From positions 2,392 through 21,738 of the forward strand of contig CAZMCX010000005.1 in assembly GCA_964565125.1 (NCBI GenBank): 19,347 bases of DNA, given 5' to 3'. Positions 965-12,855 of the stretch are shown here, piece by piece. Below the pieces are notes generated by a model. The model was not told the origin of the DNA and ran no database searches. It saw nothing but the letters and a program-made list of their open reading frames with translations. Positions within the stretch are counted from its first letter, which is position 1, and the number at the start of each line of letters is the position of its first letter. Origin of the DNA: an uncultured archaeon. GTDB lineage: Archaea; Iainarchaeota; Iainarchaeia; Iainarchaeales; 0-14-0-20-30-16. The position numbers and the translations under genes are program-made.

Positions 965-3442
965 CTAATTGGGGGCTGTGTAATTAGCAGTACTTTCTAC
1001 TAATCCATTACTTACTGTTAGAACTTGTGCTTCTCCATAAGAGTTTGAAGTAAGTATGGAAAGCTTACCATCAGCTCTTATTTCAAGATCTAAAGCATCT
1101 AATCCATTTGTAGGAATATTGTATTGATTTCCGCTTGAAACATTTAAGATTAGTGCATCTGTTCCATTAAATAGAACATTGTCTATTTCTAAATCTGCAA
1201 TAGAATATCCTTCTGGAATTGAGAATTCGTATTCATTTGTTTTTACTAAGCTTGAATTCAATTCCCACACTTTTAAGGAAGATTCATTAGTTAGCAAAAT
1301 AGCAATTTTGTCTGTGTGGTTTGTTGCTAATCTTAAAAGCTTCCAAGATGCGTTTGGCAAAGCAATTACTTTGCTTCCGATATTATTTGCTTTATTGTTG
1401 AATTTTATTATTATTGCTTTGTTGTTTATGTTCTGGTATAATATCAAAGGATTGCTCCCAAGTAGAGACATATAAACAGGGTATCTATTAGTTGTTGACC
1501 AAAGAGATTTAATAAGCTTGTTTCCACCATAAGCATTTTGTCTATATAGCCCCAAGCTTCCATTTGGATGCGTCCATAAGCCCCACCATAAAGATGGAAT
1601 TTTTTGTTCAATATCTATTGAAAGAATATTATATTCCGGATAATCAAAGAAGTCTTGGTTTATTATTCCGTTTGATCCATAATCAAAGCTTACAGACCAT
1701 TTACCATTATTTTCCCAAATAACTCCGCTGTAGTTTAGTAAACTGGCCAAGAACTTAGCATCCCATGATGAATTTGTTTTTATAATACATGCTGAGTTTT
1801 CACAGCCGAATTCACAAGTTTCTACTAATATCTCTTGAGTATTACTTAAACAATTGGAATTAAATAAGCCGCCGTTTAAGCAACTAAAAGATGTAATTTC
1901 TTTATAGATGCTATCTGCTTTACAATAATTCCCGCTTTCCGAAGGTGATCCACAATCAGTATCTAAAGAGCAAGAAGGAACAAAGCAGGATCCATTATAA
2001 CAAGAGTTTGAACAAGCTTCTTGTAAAATGTTTTCTGTTTTTGTAACACAATTTGCTAGTAGAGTTCCAGGATTTTCACAAGTAGGAACTTTTTTTGTTT
2101 TTAGAACATTATTTTCCGAGCAAAAGTTACCTGATACCCAGCTTTCAGTTCCACAATCAGTATTTGAAAAACATTTTGGAGTTACACAAGCTCCGGCTTC
2201 ACAGCCATATTCACAATCTTCTACTAAAGTGTCAGCTAGATTGTTTGAGCATGAAGAAGTCCATTTTCCCGCATCATTACAGGAAAATATCTGTTTTTTC
2301 TTGTAAACATCATTATTTTGACAATAATTTTCTCCAACAAATGTATCTGCTCCACAGTCATTATTGGCAAAACAAGCAATGTCTTTACATTGCAAATCTT
2401 CACATAATTGACTAGATGAGCATTGTTGTACCAAATTAGTAACTGTTTCTTTCTTACAATAAGAAGTAGCAGTTCCCGGGTTAACACAAGTATTTACTAA
2501 AGTATCTTTCTTTAGTGCATTAGTTGAACAATAATTTGCTGAATCAGTATTAGTTCCACATTCTAGGTTTGTAGAACAAGTAACTTGCTGTGGAAGGGGT
2601 GTTGAATTATTAATAAAGAATGTCCAAATTGCTTCATCCTTTGTTTTATCCCAGTTGTGACCCATTCCAGTTAATGTAATCAATTGATTAGGGTGACCTT
2701 TAGCGGTCAACTCTGATTGTAATGTTTGATCCCAAGAGTATGGAACTACAGGGTCATCTGTAGAGTGTATTAGAAGGCCAGGAACTTTTAATGCAGCATT
2801 TGTCTTTGCATTAGTCGCTGCTATTGGGAAGTAAAACATGTTATAGTAATTTACTAATCCTCCTGAGTGTTCTGCAAATGCAGTAACTTTATCAGGCAAA
2901 CACATTGAAGCATAGTAGCTAAACAAAGCTCCGTATGAGTGACCAATGAAGTAAACATGGTCTGCCGAAATTTTGTATTTAGAACTTACAGATGTTAACA
3001 TTGCTTTAATAAAGTCTATGTCTTGAGAAGCACATTTGTTTGAAGCCTGGATGTGCCCTATATCCCATCTTATATATTTCTCTGCCCCCGGAAAACCAGC
3101 AACATCATATTCAGGAATCTTAATCCATAAAAATGAAAAGTTCTTGGGTGGTAAATCTTTCAAGGAATTAGGGAAAACTGCAATAAATCCTTTCTGGTTT
3201 GCTAGTTGTGTAATTCCATAATAGTCGCTTGATGCAAAAGTGGCATCGCTCCCCATTCCATGGAACATAAATACCAAAGGATATGTTTTTGTTGCAACAT
3301 AATTATCCGGCAAATATACTAAGTAAGTCCTTTCTTTGCTTTGGATATTAGTTTTTTCTGTAAGCAAAGTTCCAGAGAAACTGAATGTCGCAATTAAAAC
3401 TAATGCAAACATAACAATAAAAATATTTTTTGTACTAAACAA
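965..3442 (-). CDS. Secreted alpha/beta-hydrolase (LpqC / PHB-depolymerase-like esterase) fused to four Cys-rich modules and an unknown C-terminal domain
   Basis: 825-aa ORF. TTG start at 3442 is preceded by GGTGAT plus 4 nt. Signal peptide MFSTKNIFIVMFALVLIATFSFSG. Esterase motifs: YLVYLPDNY...PLVFMFHGMG, nucleophile elbow GHS(169)YG, then HSTDDPVVP and GMGH(262)NW. Residues 289-552 are Cys-rich repeats. Residues 553-825 are Cys-free and Asn/Ser/Leu-rich. Confidence 0.85.
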   Translation of the reverse strand: MFSTKNIFIVMFALVLIATFSFSGTLLTEKTNIQSKERTYLVYLPDNYVATKTYPLVFMFHGMGSDATFASSDYYGITQLANQKGFIAVFPNSLKDLPPKNFSFLWIKIPEYDVAGFPGAEKYIRWDIGHIQASNKCASQDIDFIKAMLTSVSSKYKISADHVYFIGHSYGALFSYYASMCLPDKVTAFAEHSGGLVNYYNMFYFPIAATNAKTNAALKVPGLLIHSTDDPVVPYSWDQTLQSELTAKGHPNQLITLTGMGHNWDKTKDEAIWTFFINNSTPLPQQVTCSTNLECGTNTDSANYCSTNALKKDTLVNTCVNPGTATSYCKKETVTNLVQQCSSSQLCEDLQCKDIACFANNDCGADTFVGENYCQNNDVYKKKQIFSCNDAGKWTSSCSNNLADTLVEDCEYGCEAGACVTPKCFSNTDCGTESWVSGNFCSENNVLKTKKVPTCENPGTLLANCVTKTENILQEACSNSCYNGSCFVPSCSLDTDCGSPSESGNYCKADSIYKEITSFSCLNGGLFNSNCLSNTQEILVETCEFGCENSACIIKTNSSWDAKFLASLLNYSGVIWENNGKWSVSFDYGSNGIINQDFFDYPEYNILSIDIEQKIPSLWWGLWTHPNGSLGLYRQNAYGGNKLIKSLWSTTNRYPVYMSLLGSNPLILYQNINNKAIIIKFNNKANNIGSKVIALPNASWKLLRLATNHTDKIAILLTNESSLKVWELNSSLVKTNEYEFSIPEGYSIADLEIDNVLFNGTDALILNVSSGNQYNIPTNGLDALDLEIRADGKLSILTSNSYGEAQVLTVSNGLVESTANYTAPN
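1787..2578 (-). repeat. Four tandem protein-level Cys-rich modules (62-68 aa each, 8 Cys each) inside the esterase gene
   Basis: Each module follows C-x5-C-G-x7/8-[YF]-C-x13-C-x9-C-x11-C-x3/5-C-x4-C. The modules begin at C289, C357, C424 and C491 and end at C552, giving 32 Cys in total. Confidence 0.8.
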
Positions 3443-3499: not shown

Positions 3500-4581
3500 T
3501 TATTTATTTTTCTTTCGTCTGAAGGGAATTGGGATTTTCTTGATCTTTACAAATAGTTTTAGGAATCTAAACCAAGACTTTCCGTTCTTTTTTTCTATTT
3601 TCTTTGGATGTTTTTTATTAGATTCTATTGCTTCCAAGTAATAGTTTACCAATTTCTTAGTAGATTCTTCAATAGTGTATTTTTTTGAGAGTTCAAGATA
3701 TTTGTCCTTGGCTTTTTGTAATTCGTGTGGGTGCTCATACCAATAGTCAATTTTTTGGGCAAGATCATCAACAGTCTTAAATAAACTTTTGTTATCTATT
3801 GCAAACTGGCTACTTGCACTTTTTGGATAATCATAAATCAGGGGTGGGATTCCACAAGCAGTTCTTTTTTCATAGGCCCATAACCTTTGATTAATAATTG
3901 TATTTCTTTTTTGTATTTGGACTTTGAGATTCCTTCAATAATCATTTTCTGATTTTTTTCTGCTGAAAGCCTTCCAACACAAAGGATTACAAACTTATTT
4001 GGATATTTTTTCTTAACTTTTTGAGGATAATAATCCGGAATATGCCCATTTGAAAGTATTTTATTTTTTGTTTTTAACCCAAAAAATTTGAGCTCTGTTT
4101 GTGCAAATTTGCTTGGGCAGATAACTAGATCTGCTCTATTGTAAAAGTTTTTTATGAAAAATTTGTAAATAATGTTGATTACTCTTTTAGAACTTACTCC
4201 AATATTTTTTGTAATGTTTTCTGCCTGCGCATGGAAACTTGCCACTACTGGCTTCCCTAATTCTCTTGCATACGTAATTGTTTTTATACCCAAATAGAAT
4301 GGTAACTGAACATGAACAACATCTACGCCTTTTAATACATCCTTGATTTTTTGTTCATCTGGAACTGCAAATGCAACATCCATATCTTTCATTATTTTTT
4401 TGCAAAGGGGACATAAAAAGACTTTAGAACAACTTTATTTTTGTCGCTTTTTCCAGTACTTATGACTGTAACTTTATGTCCATGTTTTCTAAGAGATTCA
4501 GTGAACCTCTTTGTAGAAACTAAGCCCCCCACCATTGGAGTCATAAGAATCAACAACCATTGCAATATGTAATTTCTTCAT
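3500..4581 (-). pseudogene. Family 4 (GT4/GT-B) glycosyltransferase, disrupted by at least three frameshifts and a probable internal deletion
   Basis: ATG 4581 opens MKKLHIAMVVDSYDSNGGG. After a G6 run (4525-4530) the GT-like reading LVSTKRFTESLRKHGHKVTVISTGKSDKNKVVLKSFYVPFAKK continues in another frame. It returns at an A7 run (4395-4401, TAATG junction) to the 184-aa track ORF 3838-4392. The family-like C-terminus GIPPLIYDYPKSASSQFAIDN...KLVNYYLEAIESNKK (stop 3500-3502) is in a third frame after an A6 run (3865-3870). Confidence 0.7.
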
Positions 4582-7105: not shown

Positions 7106-7831
7106 TCACTTAGAGTTCTTTATTTCTACTTTCTTTTTTTCAAGATCTTTAAGTAGACTTTCGCTTATATCGTTTTTTGTGTACATGTCAGCTCTAACTG
7201 CAAGTTCTATTCTTCCCGCAAAATATCTTGAAAGCTTTCCTTTTTGTTTGTTACTCAGACCTTGCATTATTGGATGTAGGTACAAAAATCCATATTTGGG
7301 GCACTTTTTGCCGAATTTTAGATGTTTAAATAGTGCGCTTTCTGCACCAATAAGTTGGAGTGATGACGAAGGCATCTTTGAAAGCCTTTCAAGTGAACCA
7401 ACTTGTGAAATAAATTTTGTGGCCAATATTGGCCCCAATAAAGTACTTATGTTTGGATATGCTGTCTTTGCACTTTTTTCAATAATTGTCCTTAGCTTTT
7501 TGGAATTCTTTTCGAAGTCTAGGAACAAGTTACATAATGATTTAATAGATTCAATTGCATCAGGACCTAGAGAGCCAGAAATTATTGAGTCTTTTTTATT
7601 TGATTCCAAGACTGCTTTAATGTATTTTGAATTGTCTTTGCTACAAGAACCATAAAGTTCTGGGTATTCTAAACTATGCCATTTGTATACATAATCAAAG
7701 ATAGAGTTGGACTGGATTGTAAGGTAGTTAAGCACCTCCAAAGCCTTAACTGCATTAATAACATCCTTATTTTTTGATAGATAAGTATTCAAATCCTTTA
7801 CAAATTGCTTCTGCAAGCTTTCTTTATTCAT
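7106..7831 (-). CDS. nop5: Nop5 (Nop56/58) C/D box sRNP core protein, compact form
   Basis: 241 aa. Nop-domain motifs: WHSLEYPEL (family hFPEL), GAESALFKHLKFGKKCPKYGFLYLHPIMQG, KQKGKLSRYFAGRIELAVRADMY. The ATG overlaps the 3-prime end of the upstream antiporter gene by 8 nt. Confidence 0.85.
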   Translation of the reverse strand: MNKESLQKQFVKDLNTYLSKNKDVINAVKALEVLNYLTIQSNSIFDYVYKWHSLEYPELYGSCSKDNSKYIKAVLESNKKDSIISGSLGPDAIESIKSLCNLFLDFEKNSKKLRTIIEKSAKTAYPNISTLLGPILATKFISQVGSLERLSKMPSSSLQLIGAESALFKHLKFGKKCPKYGFLYLHPIMQGLSNKQKGKLSRYFAGRIELAVRADMYTKNDISESLLKDLEKKKVEIKNSK

Positions 7832-9592: not shown

Positions 9593-10675
9593 TTAATACT
9601 TATTATAAATTCTGTTTAGGGCTATTTCATTTAACCTATTTAATCTATCAATTATCATTTTTGTAATTTTAACAGGTATTGCTGCTTCTGAAGCCAAATC
9701 TTCTGGCTTAGTAATCATGATCTCAAATAGGTTGTCTCTAGTTTCAACAACCTTTTCGATAATTGTGGAAGATAACTTTGGAATCTTTGACAACGCCCTG
9801 TATCCTCTTGGTGAAATTATCTCGTTCTTTTCTGTTTCATTATAACCCAACAAAGTCAAGAGTTCCTCTTTGGACGGCACTTCTACAAGATTTACTAAGC
9901 TTTGAGTCATCTCTCCAAAGGTAATATCTCTTTTTTCTTTATGACAGTAATCGTAGATGATAAGTTCAAGTTCTCTATCAAGACCATCTGTATATTCTGA
10001 AAGCATGTCCTTTCTATCTTTTCCGTCTTTACCAAGCTCAGTAATGGCTTTTTCCGCATTCCGTTTTTGAACCAAAGTTCCAATTATTTTTTGGATTATA
10101 TTTGTAACATCAGTAAGACTTACATTGTTTGTAAATTCATAATAAGTTAATTCATTTAGAGCGACTTCGATCTGGGTTCTTGTATTGTAAAGACTTCTTA
10201 AATCTTGGTCAACACTAGCTAAAACAAATTGTACTGGTTTTAGTAAAAATTCCTGATCTTTAAAAAATAAGGTAATGTTTTTTCTCCTTTTTGAAATAGC
10301 AACTACTGGTAAGTTTGTTTGTATTGCAGTCTGCTCTGCAGATCTATGCCTGATTCCAGTCTGTTTTGAGGAAATATCTTTGTCTGGCATTAAGTGGGCA
10401 TTTGCATAGATTATTTGTTTTAAATCATTGCTTATTATAATTGCTCCATCCATCTTTGAAAGCTCGAATAAATTATTTGAAGTTAATGGGACATCTAAAC
10501 GGAATCCGCCCCTAATTATACATTCTAATATGAGGTTTCTGCCCACAACAATTAATGCCCCGGCATCTCCCTTTAAAATTTCATCTAATCCTGCCCTCAA
10601 GGGGGTTCCAGGTGCTATAAGGGGGATAATTTCATCTACATTTTTGTATTCTTGCATTTTCTTTTCTTCTGTCAT
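9593..10675 (-). CDS. disA: DisA-type diadenylate cyclase (DNA integrity scanning protein homologue)
   Basis: Collinear with bacterial DisA. Matches include APGTPLRAGLDEILKGDAGALIVVG, DAC motifs KMDGAIIIS and TGIRHRSAEQTA, VVAISKRRKNITLF, and the C-terminal PRGYRALSKIPKL. ATG 10675 is preceded by AGGTGAT plus 4 nt, and the track GTG at 10684 lies inside that SD. The longest ORF would be 9593-10684. Confidence 0.85.
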   Translation of the reverse strand: MTEEKKMQEYKNVDEIIPLIAPGTPLRAGLDEILKGDAGALIVVGRNLILECIIRGGFRLDVPLTSNNLFELSKMDGAIIISNDLKQIIYANAHLMPDKDISSKQTGIRHRSAEQTAIQTNLPVVAISKRRKNITLFFKDQEFLLKPVQFVLASVDQDLRSLYNTRTQIEVALNELTYYEFTNNVSLTDVTNIIQKIIGTLVQKRNAEKAITELGKDGKDRKDMLSEYTDGLDRELELIIYDYCHKEKRDITFGEMTQSLVNLVEVPSKEELLTLLGYNETEKNEIISPRGYRALSKIPKLSSTIIEKVVETRDNLFEIMITKPEDLASEAAIPVKITKMIIDRLNRLNEIALNRIYNKY

Positions 10676-10686
10676 TGGTATCACCT

Positions 10687-11532
10687 TTATTTCAGGTTGT
10701 CTAATGGACTTTTTACTTTTTTGAGCTCGTCTGTTGTAACCTTTGTATAGATTTGAGTTGTAGACAAATTAGAATGCCCCAAAAGTTCCTGAATTTTTCT
10801 AATATTTTCCCCAGCATCTAGTAAATGTGTTGCAAAAGAATGCCTTAAAGTATGAGGCGTTACTTTTGTATTAATCTTTGCGTTGTCTGCATAATTTTTT
10901 ATCATCTTTTGGATTGTGTCAGAACTATAATTTGTGCCATTTTTTTTGCAGAAAACATATTCTGAGTTCACTTTCTTGAAAAATTTGTTTGCAAATGCCT
11001 GATATTCTACAAGCCATCTTTTTGATACTATTACAATTCGATCTTTATTGCCTTTGCCACCTGTAATTCTAATGATTGCTTCATTAAAATCTATTGCGTT
11101 TTTCTTTAGGTTACATAGTTCTGAAACTCTTAGGCCTGAGCTATAAAGAAGTTCAACTATGAGCTTATCTTTTTTGTCAGAAATAACCCTAAAAAGCTTT
11201 TTTACTTCTTCTTTTGTTAATACTGTTGGCAGGTATTGTTCTTTTTTCGGGGTTTTGATGTCTGCCATAAGGTTTTGTTTTTTGTAGCCACTAAAGTAAT
11301 ACTTTAAACTAGCATGGATTGCATTAAGAGAGGTATTTCTTATTCCTGCATCTTTTTTGTGTGATAAATAAGAAGTAATATCCTCGGTTGTCACTAAATT
11401 AAGGTCTTTGTTTATGAATTTCAAGAAGTCGTTAAGGTATAGAAGGTACTGACTCTGCGTTTTATTGCTGTATCCGGAAATGTTTAGATGATTTTTGTAA
11501 TGTTCTATTTCTAAAGAATTATAAGAATCCAT
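10687..11532 (-). CDS. xerA: Tyrosine recombinase, XerA/XerC/XerD family
   Basis: 281 aa with an N-terminal SAM-like core-binding domain. Catalytic set: GLR(V)SE, GKGNKDR, HTLRHSFATH, LLGHSNLSTTQIYT (R-K-H-R-H-Y). The TAA stop is 2 nt from the longest disA ORF. Confidence 0.85.
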   Translation of the reverse strand: MDSYNSLEIEHYKNHLNISGYSNKTQSQYLLYLNDFLKFINKDLNLVTTEDITSYLSHKKDAGIRNTSLNAIHASLKYYFSGYKKQNLMADIKTPKKEQYLPTVLTKEEVKKLFRVISDKKDKLIVELLYSSGLRVSELCNLKKNAIDFNEAIIRITGGKGNKDRIVIVSKRWLVEYQAFANKFFKKVNSEYVFCKKNGTNYSSDTIQKMIKNYADNAKINTKVTPHTLRHSFATHLLDAGENIRKIQELLGHSNLSTTQIYTKVTTDELKKVKSPLDNLK

Positions 11533-11569: not shown

Positions 11570-11581
11570 AAATCGGCTTAA
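11570..11581. other. Half-site AAATCGGCTTAA: 11/12 copy of the left arm of the dif-like site at 12265-12276
   Basis: Direct-orientation copy 38-49 nt upstream of the xerA ATG, between two TATA-like AT blocks. No matching second arm follows it. Confidence 0.4.
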
Positions 11582-11612
11582 ACCCATAAATATATACATA
11601 ACCACTGAAATA

Positions 11613-12167
11613 TTACTTTTGAGATAACCAGTTATATATTCCTGTAACTCTTAGACGAATTTCTTCATATCCATACCTTTTTCTTTCTTCTTCGAATTTT
11701 ACATATGTTGCAAGCGCCTTTTTTAGTAAAACAACTTCTGATAATCCTTTTGATTTTACATTTAATCTGCTAAATATCCCAGTAAAAACACGATCAGTAA
11801 AAAGATCACGTAACTGGTTTGCATGGTAACGTTCTGCTTTGGGTATAGACCCCAAAGCTTTATCTTGGGCTTCTTTAGCATCCCTAAAATCGCGTTGAAA
11901 CTCAGCATCACGTCGTTCAAGAGCTGAGGCAGAATTAAACCATAAAAAGTGTATTAATTTTGATACATATTCCTTTTTCCTATTGAAAAGGTCCCTTTTT
12001 GTTAGTCTTCCTGCAAGCGCTCTTTGTCTTTCTAACCTTTCAGCAAGTTTTCTTGCTTTTTCTATTCTTTTTTGTTCGGCCTTATTTTTTGCAAATTCAA
12101 ATAAGGGTGTTCCTCATTCTCCTTTTTGAGCAACTCTTCTTTCAGTAGGTCTCTTAGGTACAGTCAT
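11613..12167 (-). pseudogene. Hypothetical basic/helical protein gene of atypical composition, with one in-frame TGA at codon 18 (pseudogene or recoded)
   Basis: I translated the whole - frame by hand. ATG 12167 has GTGAT 3 nt upstream, and the frame is open to TAA 11613 except for TGA at 12114-12116 (AQKGE-TGA-GTPLFEF). No ATG/GTG/TTG occurs in frame until the TTG at 11855, which the ORF track used. 7 of 23 Arg codons are CGN; CpG and G+C are enriched relative to neighbours. Confidence 0.55.
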
Positions 12168-12265
12168 GTAATCACTTATAAAAAATCGTCACCAATATTA
12201 ATATTCATTACTAAAGTCTACATAACAAATACCTTTTGCGGTAAAATGCGGGCAGAAAATACGTA

Positions 12266-12293
12266 AATCGGCATAATGTACCTTATGCCGATA
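12266..12293. other. dif-like Xer recombination site candidate (11-6-11 layout, perfect 10-bp arms)
   Basis: AATCGGCATAA-TGTACC-TTATGCCGATA. Arms ATCGGCATAA and TTATGCCGAT are exact reverse complements separated by 6 bp. The inner 17 nt GCATAATGTACCTTATG match E. coli dif GCATAATGTATATTATG at 15/17 positions. It lies in a 255-bp non-coding gap, 735 bp from xerA. Confidence 0.55.
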
Positions 12294-12380
12294 ATCTACG
12301 AAAGAAATGTGTGCGGGAATACAAAGCATACAGAAAAAGAACCATAAAACTAAAAAATGGCTTGTTTGGGGGGGTTATGT

Positions 12381-12408
12381 ATAAAAAACCACAAAATTAG
12401 TGGTGTTG
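12381..12408 (-). terminator. Weak hairpin plus T-run downstream of the 118/121-aa gene
   Basis: On the - strand: CCAC-taatttt-GTGG followed by TTTTTTAT, beginning about 15 nt after the TGA stop at 12423-12425. A G7 run (12368-12374) follows. Confidence 0.3.
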
Positions 12409-12422
12409 GATTAAGAGTAGTT

Positions 12423-12779
12423 TCATTTAATGACTCTAATTACCATATCCTTTTTGTACTCTTTCTGCACGAACTTATAATCCCCATAGTGTTCGTAAAT
12501 TATTAGTCTTGCGGGGTAGTCTTTTGCAGTAGTAGTTGGCTTAGTAAAAATTTGAAAATAAAATGTTTTTGATTCACCCGGGGCCATTTCCCCTATAGGC
12601 CGTTCTAGTTTGTTGTTCATCCCCGTGCTTTCAACAGCCAAATCCTTAGCAACCATAAAGGCCAAAGTCAAAAGCTTTTTCTCTTCATCTTTATTTTCTA
12701 AAATAAGTTTCAGTTCTTGTGGTTTTTTTGTTCCTAATTTTATATTAAATGGTATCAAAACACTTTTTATTGCTAACAT
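12423..12779 (-). CDS. Hypothetical small cytoplasmic protein (beta-rich; no family recognised)
   Basis: ORF with native AT-rich composition. ATG 12779 is preceded by GGGTGAT plus 4 nt, and the track GTG 12788 lies inside that SD. No signal peptide or TM helix. The PGESKTFYFQI-type strand pattern is reminiscent of small beta-sandwich domains. Confidence 0.65.
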   Translation of the reverse strand: MLAIKSVLIPFNIKLGTKKPQELKLILENKDEEKKLLTLAFMVAKDLAVESTGMNNKLERPIGEMAPGESKTFYFQIFTKPTTTAKDYPARLIIYEHYGDYKFVQKEYKKDMVIRVIK

Positions 12780-12855
12780 TAATATCACCCTTCACTTTGT
12801 AACTCTATAATATACACAGTAATGTAATATATATTCTTATCATATAAAATAGTTT

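Follow-up and report, generated by a model that had tools for sequence, protein, structure and literature searches.

Is the palindrome that lies upstream of xerA in an uncultured archaeon of the Iainarchaeota the site at which the encoded tyrosine recombinase resolves chromosome dimers, that is, its dif? The locus is part of a stretch of 19,347 nucleotides (contig CAZMCX010000005.1; called the window below, at its full length), which belongs to a low-GC (about 32%) member of the DPANN archaea. Comparison of its sequence with related loci indicates that the 28-bp palindrome is probably the dif of the adjacent XerA. This identification is well supported because the arms of the site are conserved whilst its spacer is free to change, because the site occupies the same slot in seven other loci, and because the neighbouring protein has the marks of a true XerA. 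The anatomy of the site, its pattern of conservation, the identity of XerA and the linkage of the two within one clade are matters of observation; what the recombinase does at the site is a matter of analogy with better known systems.

The site and the neighbouring recombinase

The element occupies positions 12266–12293 and reads AATCGGCATAA-TGTACC-TTATGCCGATA. Its arms, ATCGGCATAA and TTATGCCGAT, show exact complementarity over 10 bp around a 6-bp spacer (12277–12282), the inner 8 bp of the two arms lying at 12269–12276 and 12283–12290. A repeat search describes the same site as a palindrome of 13+13 nt with 92% complementarity, because the centre of the spacer, GTAC, is itself palindromic; in this near-perfect 26-bp palindrome asymmetry is confined to spacer positions 1 and 6 (T..C). 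The overall anatomy is 11-6-11 with CATAA-N6-TTATG at its heart. The layout of archaeal dif sites has been defined (PMC8371274, PMC11840125), with TAA-N6-8-TTA as the most conserved feature (PMC11840125), and the present site has this layout: arms of about 11 bp in inverted orientation, 6 bp between them, and TAA-N6-TTA at the inner ends. The site lies in a 255-bp gap (12168–12422) between two minus-strand open reading frames (ORFs), bounded by the start of one (11613–12167) and the stop of the other (12423–12788), and 734 bp separate it from the start codon of xerA at 11532. The complementary arms, the spacer and the gap had all been reported in an original prediction made from the window alone, and each stands as described.

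The inner stretch of the site is identical to that of E. coli dif at 15/17 positions, a count in that prediction which recomputation leaves unchanged; over the full site the identity is 17/28, the same as that with the dif of Pyrococcus abyssi. A 26-mer pattern search allowing up to three mismatches finds one match in the window and none in 200 shuffles, and perfect 10-6-10 inverted repeats of whatever sequence turn up at a rate of 0.07 per shuffled window of the same composition (about 7% of shuffles). By itself, the palindrome is modestly unlikely, which is suggestive and not decisive. What decides the matter is conservation: a reading as a chance palindrome fails because the site is conserved in relatives.

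The xerA gene (10687–11532, minus strand) encodes a protein of 281 amino acids with a Phage_integrase domain (Pfam, E = 2.8e-44) and SAM-like N-terminal domains. It scores 275.4 bits against the NCBIfam equivalog model recomb_XerA_Arch, for which the cut-off is 220, and its best match among solved structures is P. abyssi XerA (4a8e, E = 1.8e-53), with which it aligns end to end; Thermoplasma acidophilum XerA (5hxy) follows with E = 1.6e-42. The catalytic set R-K-H-R-H-Y is complete, residues R135, K160, H227, R230, H253 and Y262 being invariant among 24 homologues in the family alignment. These comparisons mark the neighbouring recombinase as a true archaeal XerA, as had been proposed for it at the outset, and it is indeed the only tyrosine recombinase of the window, a single protein among the 18 ORFs having a Phage_integrase domain in Pfam. 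Identities as XerS (99 bits against a model cut-off of 267) and as XerH (a weak match only, to PDB entry 5jjv, E = 6.5e-13) were considered and rejected. The closest homologues of the protein carry the names Candidatus Iainarchaeum or Diapherotrites, a group within DPANN.

Conservation across archaeal loci

Two sets of loci were compared. One was gathered by XerA homology and comprises L001 (88% identity), L003 (75%), L093 (60%), L092 (59%), L008 (57%) and L091 (57%); the other was added from the matches listed in a DNA-pattern scan that covered one genome per species, and comprises L136 (XerA 53% identical), L152 and L116. The motif CGGCATAA-N6-TTATGC(C/T)G is present in the window and in at least nine other archaeal loci (Iainarchaeota/Diapherotrites), and the ten sequences align without gaps. 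Within this alignment the inner 8+8 positions of the arms are invariant save for one C/T, complementarity is only loose at the three outermost positions of either 11-bp arm, and the spacer is hypervariable, with nine different sequences in the ten loci (those listed are TGTACC, GGTACA, TTGCCA, TTGTTA, TCTATA, TCCTTA, which occurs twice, TCAACA and TCATAG). L001, the locus most closely related to the window, shares 26/28 positions of the core with it, as against 45% of the remainder of the gap.

Constrained arms around a free spacer are the pattern expected of a recombinase site: the arms would be constrained because the protein reads them, and the spacer would be free because the overlap needs only to match the sister copy. 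In the same flank orientation, the spacer TGTACC of the window (12277–12282) and of L001 is the reverse complement of GGTACA in L003 (8506–8511). The simplest reading of this pair is that the ancestral spacer was TGTACA, fully palindromic, and that its symmetry was lost through a different single substitution in each lineage.

The site occurs once in the window and once in each of the archaeal loci, which extend to about 21 kb, and each archaeal genome appears once among the matches listed in the genome scan. No direct-repeat family in the window contains it. A dispersed repeat or miniature inverted-repeat transposable element (MITE) was rejected on the same count of one copy per window and per locus examined.

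Linkage to xerA

The order Dtd – geneB – site – (geneA or variable ORFs) – xerA is kept in the window and in L001, L003, L008, L091, L092, L093 and L136, loci whose XerA proteins are 53–88% identical to that of the window. Here Dtd is an archaeal-type D-aminoacyl-tRNA deacylase, and geneA and geneB are the two ORFs that border the gap. The distance from site to xerA is about 150–170 bp where no ORF intervenes (L008, L091, L136) and 0.7–1.5 kb otherwise. The motif was expected, on the original prediction, to recur next to xerA orthologues in related genomes, and it does so, in the same gap, in seven of the nine other archaeal loci. The remaining two, L116 and L152, come from Iainarchaeum metagenome-assembled genomes (MAGs), and within 8 kb of their site unit there is no xerA. 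In L116 the unit sits between convergent gene ends, which argues, on sequence, for an autonomous chromosomal site and not for an operator of xerA.

Further afield, L009 and L010, with XerA 52% identical, contain no such site within 10 kb. Eighty mostly distant xer loci from metagenomes (30–49% identity) contained no TAA-N6-TTA palindrome and no match to model R1; the scan, with the XerA alignment as its query, added no close relatives. The linkage of site and xerA is clade-specific and not general. It had also been thought undescribed for archaeal XerA, and in this the original prediction was mistaken. A 2017 review already notes that some archaea have an individual xerA/dif module (PMC5357621), and in Haloferax volcanii and Halobacterium salinarum a putative dif has been placed upstream of the xerA operon (2025, PMC11840125). 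The linked arrangement itself is not new.

Comparison with known Xer systems

The nearest parallel is found in the Thermococcales, which rely on one recombinase, a member of the orthologous family to which the window's XerA belongs. The dif of P. abyssi, ATTGGATATAA-TCGGCC-TTATATCTAAA, is likewise an intergenic site of 28 bp, 11-6-11 in layout, with nearly symmetric arms and ATAA-N6-TTAT. The differences lie in the outer arm bases (GGAT there, CGGC here), in the position of the site, which in the Thermococcales is not beside xerA (PMC2958812), and in the flanks, which there are AT-rich over about 23 bp and here consist of a one-sided purine block at 7 nt and 10-bp inverted repeats. Moreover, XerA binding and in vitro recombination have been demonstrated at P. 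abyssi dif, whilst the window site is a predicted one. In two haloarchaea (PMC11840125) and in the xerA/dif module of some archaea (PMC5357621) a dif-like palindrome lies upstream of the transcription unit that contains xerA, as it does here. The haloarchaeal sites are also predictions; they belong, however, to a different phylum (Halobacteria as against DPANN), and no cassette of fixed geometry has been described around them. The putative dif sites of H. volcanii and H. salinarum coincide with Smc-dependent domain boundaries, and in Thermococcus the sequences around dif form such a boundary (PMC11840125).

Bacterial systems offer further likenesses. XerS/difSL of streptococci and lactococci and XerH/difH of Campylobacterota each employ one recombinase with the site linked to its gene, as here, although difSL has 31 bp, an 11-bp centre and asymmetric arms, in contrast to the canonical 11-6-11 of the window site. 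The XerS and XerH systems depend on FtsK, which archaea lack (PMC8371274). E. coli XerCD/dif shares the core consensus GCATAA-TGTA..-TTATG, over which the 15/17 match was counted, but works with two recombinases and asymmetric arms. In the plasmid sites cer and psi, accessory DNA beside the core imposes selectivity, an idea that may be common to the cassette described below. Those accessory sequences extend to one side over about 180 bp and are bound by PepA, ArgR or ArcA.

A conserved cassette around the core

Beyond the core, conservation continues on one side. A purine-rich accessory block, ACGAAAGAAAT (12298–12308, plus strand; consensus RYGAAGGRAAT), begins exactly 7 nt past the ...GCCG of one arm, with identical, gapless spacing in 10/10 archaeal loci. 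Its position 3 (G) and position 9 (A) are invariant, whilst the opposite side has no invariant position among 17 aligned columns. Against L001 the block is 9/11 identical, compared with 45% elsewhere in the gap. Loci with the degenerate arm TTATGCTG have it on the side of the block.

Further out, the core is framed by 10-bp inverted repeats, TATACATAAC before it and GTTATGTATA after it. The block-distal repeat (12217–12226, minus strand; TCTACATAAC on the plus strand, GTTATGTAGA on the minus strand) is separated from the 22-bp core by 42 nt and lies about 50 nt upstream of the start codon of geneA, an ATG; the block-side repeat, GTTATGTATA, lies at 12374–12383 on the plus strand, 83 nt from the core. 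Among the eight xerA-linked loci, six have an interval of 42–44 nt from TATACATAAC to the core, L093 (54 nt) and L136 (64 nt) being the exceptions; the interval from the core to GTTATGTATA is 83–85 nt in the window, L001, L003 and L092, 74 nt in L093 and 94–95 nt in L008 and L091. Spacings are longer in the unlinked loci L152 (28% GC) and L116 (49% GC), at 122–124 and 228–237 nt, and in GC-richer L116 exact 10-mers flank the core. A control with the 10-mers in the wrong orientation gave only matches with 2–3 mismatches.

Exact non-coding copies of GTTATGTATA in the window occur around the site locus only. They include a third one, at 11593–11602 on the minus strand, about 60 nt upstream of the start codon of xerA, with a counterpart in L001. 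Beside it, 11 nt away in the gap between geneA and xerA, is a lone degenerate half-site, AATCGGCtTAA (11571–11581, plus strand), which at the same place in L001 reads AATCGGCcTAA. L116 contains three exact copies of GTTATGTATA in 8 kb, which show the 10-mer to be real, although dif is not the only place where it occurs. A reading of the 10-mer as a general promoter motif was considered and set aside.

The cassette is asymmetric and is found inverted as a whole relative to geneB and xerA in L008, L091 and L136, whilst its orientation is constant within a species across samples (L001 = L002; L003 = L004 = L005). Conserved sequences are known to flank the dif of Thermococcales (PMC2958812), and earlier work on Thermococcales and Methanosphaera has described conserved flanks and inverted repeats around dif. 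It is attractive, if on balance doubtful, to suppose that an XerA site which is symmetric and independent of FtsK owes its polarity, and its restriction to dimer resolution, to a cassette of fixed geometry that moves and inverts as a unit. Possible modes include the binding of an accessory protein, the recruitment of extra XerA to the half-site-like repeats, and a domain boundary of the kind formed at Thermococcus dif. Should the cassette impose polarity, geneA would be a candidate partner.

Proposed mechanism and points against it

By analogy with the XerA proteins of P. abyssi and T. acidophilum, one XerA monomer would bind each arm and read the inner 8 bp, CGGCATAA. Two sister sites on a chromosome dimer would then synapse, Tyr262 would cleave where the 6-bp spacer meets each arm, and strands would be exchanged twice in succession, via a Holliday junction, to restore the monomers. 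Such a mechanism would allow the spacer to drift freely between lineages, because only sister copies must match. Since the arms are symmetric, polarity and control would probably come from the conserved surroundings, namely the block and the 10-bp repeats.

A number of points weigh against the identification as dif. The spacer is almost palindromic (T-GTAC-C), so that the core alone has little directionality. Neither the cumulative GC skew nor the gene orientation turns at the site (12.3 kb), which on the original prediction would mark the terminus region, in a 19-kb window that is too short for this test; the minimum of the skew, at about 15.7 kb, falls at the switch in gene strand, and an archaeal dif need not coincide with replication termination (PMC4640148). 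The counts of copies cover the window, the loci and the listed genome matches, and a single copy per genome would be an extrapolation from them. The block and the inverted repeats occur in no described dif and could also belong to a regulatory region or a small transcribed unit. Finally, binding, cleavage, the role in dimer resolution and any role of the accessory elements are inferred.

Alternative explanations

Four other accounts of the locus can be set against the dif reading. The cassette may be a gene for a small non-coding RNA, in which TATACATAAC would serve as a TATA-like promoter and the transcript would comprise the hairpin and the block, end in a T-run and expose a stem read by a protein. 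The constant spacing of 42–44 nt between 10-mer and hairpin would suit this, as would the one-sidedness of the block, a run of five or more T within about 25 nt after the block in 5/10 lineages, and a plus-strand fold that beats shuffles (z = −3.3). The fold of the minus strand, however, is not significant (z = −1.5), no T-run follows the block in the window or in L001, and the RNAalifold consensus is an 8-bp stem and nothing more. Of its pairs 7/8 never vary and 0/8 show two-sided changes, with a covariation term of −0.15 kcal/mol, and the observed covariation score is reached by 81/500 column shuffles; the sole arm change, from CGG to CAG (L092, L152), has no matching change in the other arm. 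Pairs that never vary are no proof of a stem, nor do they speak against one. Scans of the whole window with Rfam (E ≤ 1) and for tRNAs gave no matches, and the arms equal Xer-type arms that stand beside bacterial Xer-family genes (see below), all of which makes an RNA gene unlikely. The palindrome could also be read as an operator for a geneA–xerA–disA unit, bound by a dimeric transcription factor or by XerA as its own repressor, with no recombination involved. Its position about 100 bp upstream of geneA, or 150–170 bp upstream of xerA where geneA is absent, would suit an operator, and the upstream region of xerA has its own degenerate half-site and 10-mer copy. Against this stand the units of L116 and L152, with no xerA inside 8 kb and in L116 between convergent ends that need no promoter, the inversion of the unit relative to xerA in L008, L091 and L136, and the combination of a 6-bp spacer with ATAA/TTAT inner arms, which is the signature of the Xer catalytic core; an operator is quite unlikely.

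The cassette might instead be a mobile or invertible element, whether MITE-like, a switch of the fim type that the neighbouring recombinase flips, or the att site of an element that imported geneA. Terminal inverted repeats of 10 bp bound a unit of about 170 or about 400 bp, which is met in two orientations and at least three genomic contexts. The ORFs between site and xerA are variable and evolve fast, with a degenerate half-site beyond them, and a 23%-GC contig in IMG/VR has the core and part of the block. Yet there is one copy per locus, and one per archaeal genome among the matches listed; orientation is fixed within species across samples, synteny is stable down to 53% XerA identity, and geneA is not flanked by a second full site. 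No gene could be recognised on the viral contig, and a further scan of viral sequences with core plus block returned chance matches only, so that a mobile origin is very unlikely. The last account, a chance palindrome or a hairpin terminator of the gene at 12423–12788, has next to no probability. Perfect inverted repeats of this size do arise in shuffled windows at the rate given above, but not with near letter-for-letter conservation in ten loci; as for a terminator, no T-run follows the stem on either strand, a terminator scan does not flag the site, and the gene in question has a hairpin and T6 of its own at 12388–12404. The dif of XerA is thus retained as the probable identity of the palindrome.

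Neighbouring genes

The ORF between site and xerA, geneA (11613–12167, minus strand), encodes a charged, fast-evolving protein with 29% identity (E = 3e-17) to the syntenic ORF of L001. It is also weakly similar to a 248-amino-acid ORF in L003 (E = 8.5e-4 for the latter against the L001 ORF), with a C-terminal motif in common, and geneA is absent from L008, L091 and L136. The frame is interrupted by a single in-frame TGA (12114–12116, codon 18) and is otherwise intact, the alignment with L001 continuing through the stop. This TGA may have arisen by a recent nonsense mutation or by an error of assembly, or the codon may be read through. Recoding of UGA was rejected as its cause, TGA being an ordinary stop that ends 5/18 genes of the window. 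The notion of geneA as cargo between two Xer sites, as in a mobile element that integrates by use of Xer recombination (IMEX) or a dif-module, is doubtful; there is a lone degenerate half-site and no second full site.

On the other side, geneB (12423–12788, minus strand) encodes a conserved protein of 118–123 amino acids; in all xerA-linked loci the gene is on the side of the site away from xerA. In tblastn searches its identity is 97% in L001, 73% in L003 and 44–52% in L008, L091, L092, L093 and L136; towards L001 it is more conserved than XerA (97% versus 88%). No Pfam or NCBIfam family was found for geneA or geneB, even at relaxed thresholds. Directly after xerA on the same strand is a homologue of disA with DAC and DisA-linker domains (xerA and disA together span 9593–11532 in the window), an adjacency seen also in L001 and L003 and thus kept in the three closest lineages. 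Other genes of the window are of housekeeping type (fibrillarin, Nop5, GatD, Dtd, AsnRS/AspRS, Lon and DisA).

The pair L009 and L010 shows features of its own. To the left of position 7282, upstream of a block that they share, the two diverge completely despite identical XerA proteins, and HicAB and a Y1 transposase are encoded in that part of L010; the strain-variable region is about 2.7 kb from xerA. At 11114–11185, 270 bp downstream of xerA, both carry a different 11-6-11 palindrome, TTTCTGTGTTT-TTGCCT-AAAAACAGAAA, which is without the TAA/TTA signature and is flanked by two direct 10-mer copies (GTTATGTATA and ATTATGTATA).

Related arms in bacteria and viruses

Arms of the same kind are found outside the archaea. 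At least about 20 loci in MAGs of Oscillospiraceae and related Clostridia have a perfectly symmetric site, ATTCGGCATAA-TATTAA-TTATGCCGAAT, with conserved flanks. In at least 15 of these bacterial loci, with arms TTCGGCATAA-N6-TTATGCCGAA, tblastn coordinates place a gene of the Xer family about 100–300 bp from the site (L197, positions 2108–3183, together with L120, L132, L134, L140, L158, L159, L168, L170, L185, L186, L191, L214, L220 and L224). The recombinase scores 237 bits against the XerC model, below its cut-off of 335, and two of these genomes have two copies of the site each. From their sequences the Oscillospiraceae-type loci look like a linked module of a single recombinase and its site. 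The use of the CGGCATAA arm by Xer-type enzymes elsewhere hints at independent support for the arm sequence.

A further arrangement occurs in high-GC bacteria and in viral contigs, where four TCGGCATAA half-sites form arrays around a central palindrome, often near contig ends; where checked, these are beside tyrosine recombinase genes, two or three of them in some loci. They were seen in bacterial loci L115, L122, L126, L135, L148, L153, L156, L181, L187, L188, L193, L213 and L225 and in IMG/VR loci L096, L100, L101, L103, L107–L109 and L111, and we take them to resemble recombinase-in-trio elements.

The IMG/VR contig with core and partial block is L099 (IMGVR_UViG_3300013137_000046, 23% GC), which at 4357–4396 contains TTACGGCATAA-TGTAAG-TTATGCCGTAT followed by ACGAAG at the archaeal 7-nt block spacing. 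It scores 33 bits against model R1 (E = 2e-8), its ORFs match no informative family, and its metagenome is numbered next to 3300013138, the source of two Iainarchaeota loci. Either a mobile element that makes use of XerA or a fragment binned in error may account for it. The wider reading of the site as carried by a virus or plasmid, an archaeal IMEX, was set aside, as the further viral scan gave nothing beyond chance matches. In a MAG labelled 'Hyphomicrobiales', one contig (L189, positions 3001–3035, 33% GC) carries ATTCGGCATAA-TCTTCA-TTATGCTGAAA, with 30 bits to the archaeal model, and is probably a mis-binned contig of DPANN origin.

Implications

Literature searches returned no paper combining DPANN with dif or Xer, and the palindrome therefore seems to be the first candidate dif from the DPANN archaea. 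The motif CGGCATAA-N6-TTATGCCG would provide a sequence handle for finding the dimer-resolution locus in MAGs of Iainarchaeota. Linked arrangements being already known from other archaea, it is the cassette of fixed geometry that merits the attention of specialists. How XerA is steered to resolution without FtsK is a standing question in archaea (PMC2958812, PMC8371274), and a symmetric core with a one-sided block at a fixed distance and flanking repeats may offer a simple set of in vitro substrates with which to approach it.

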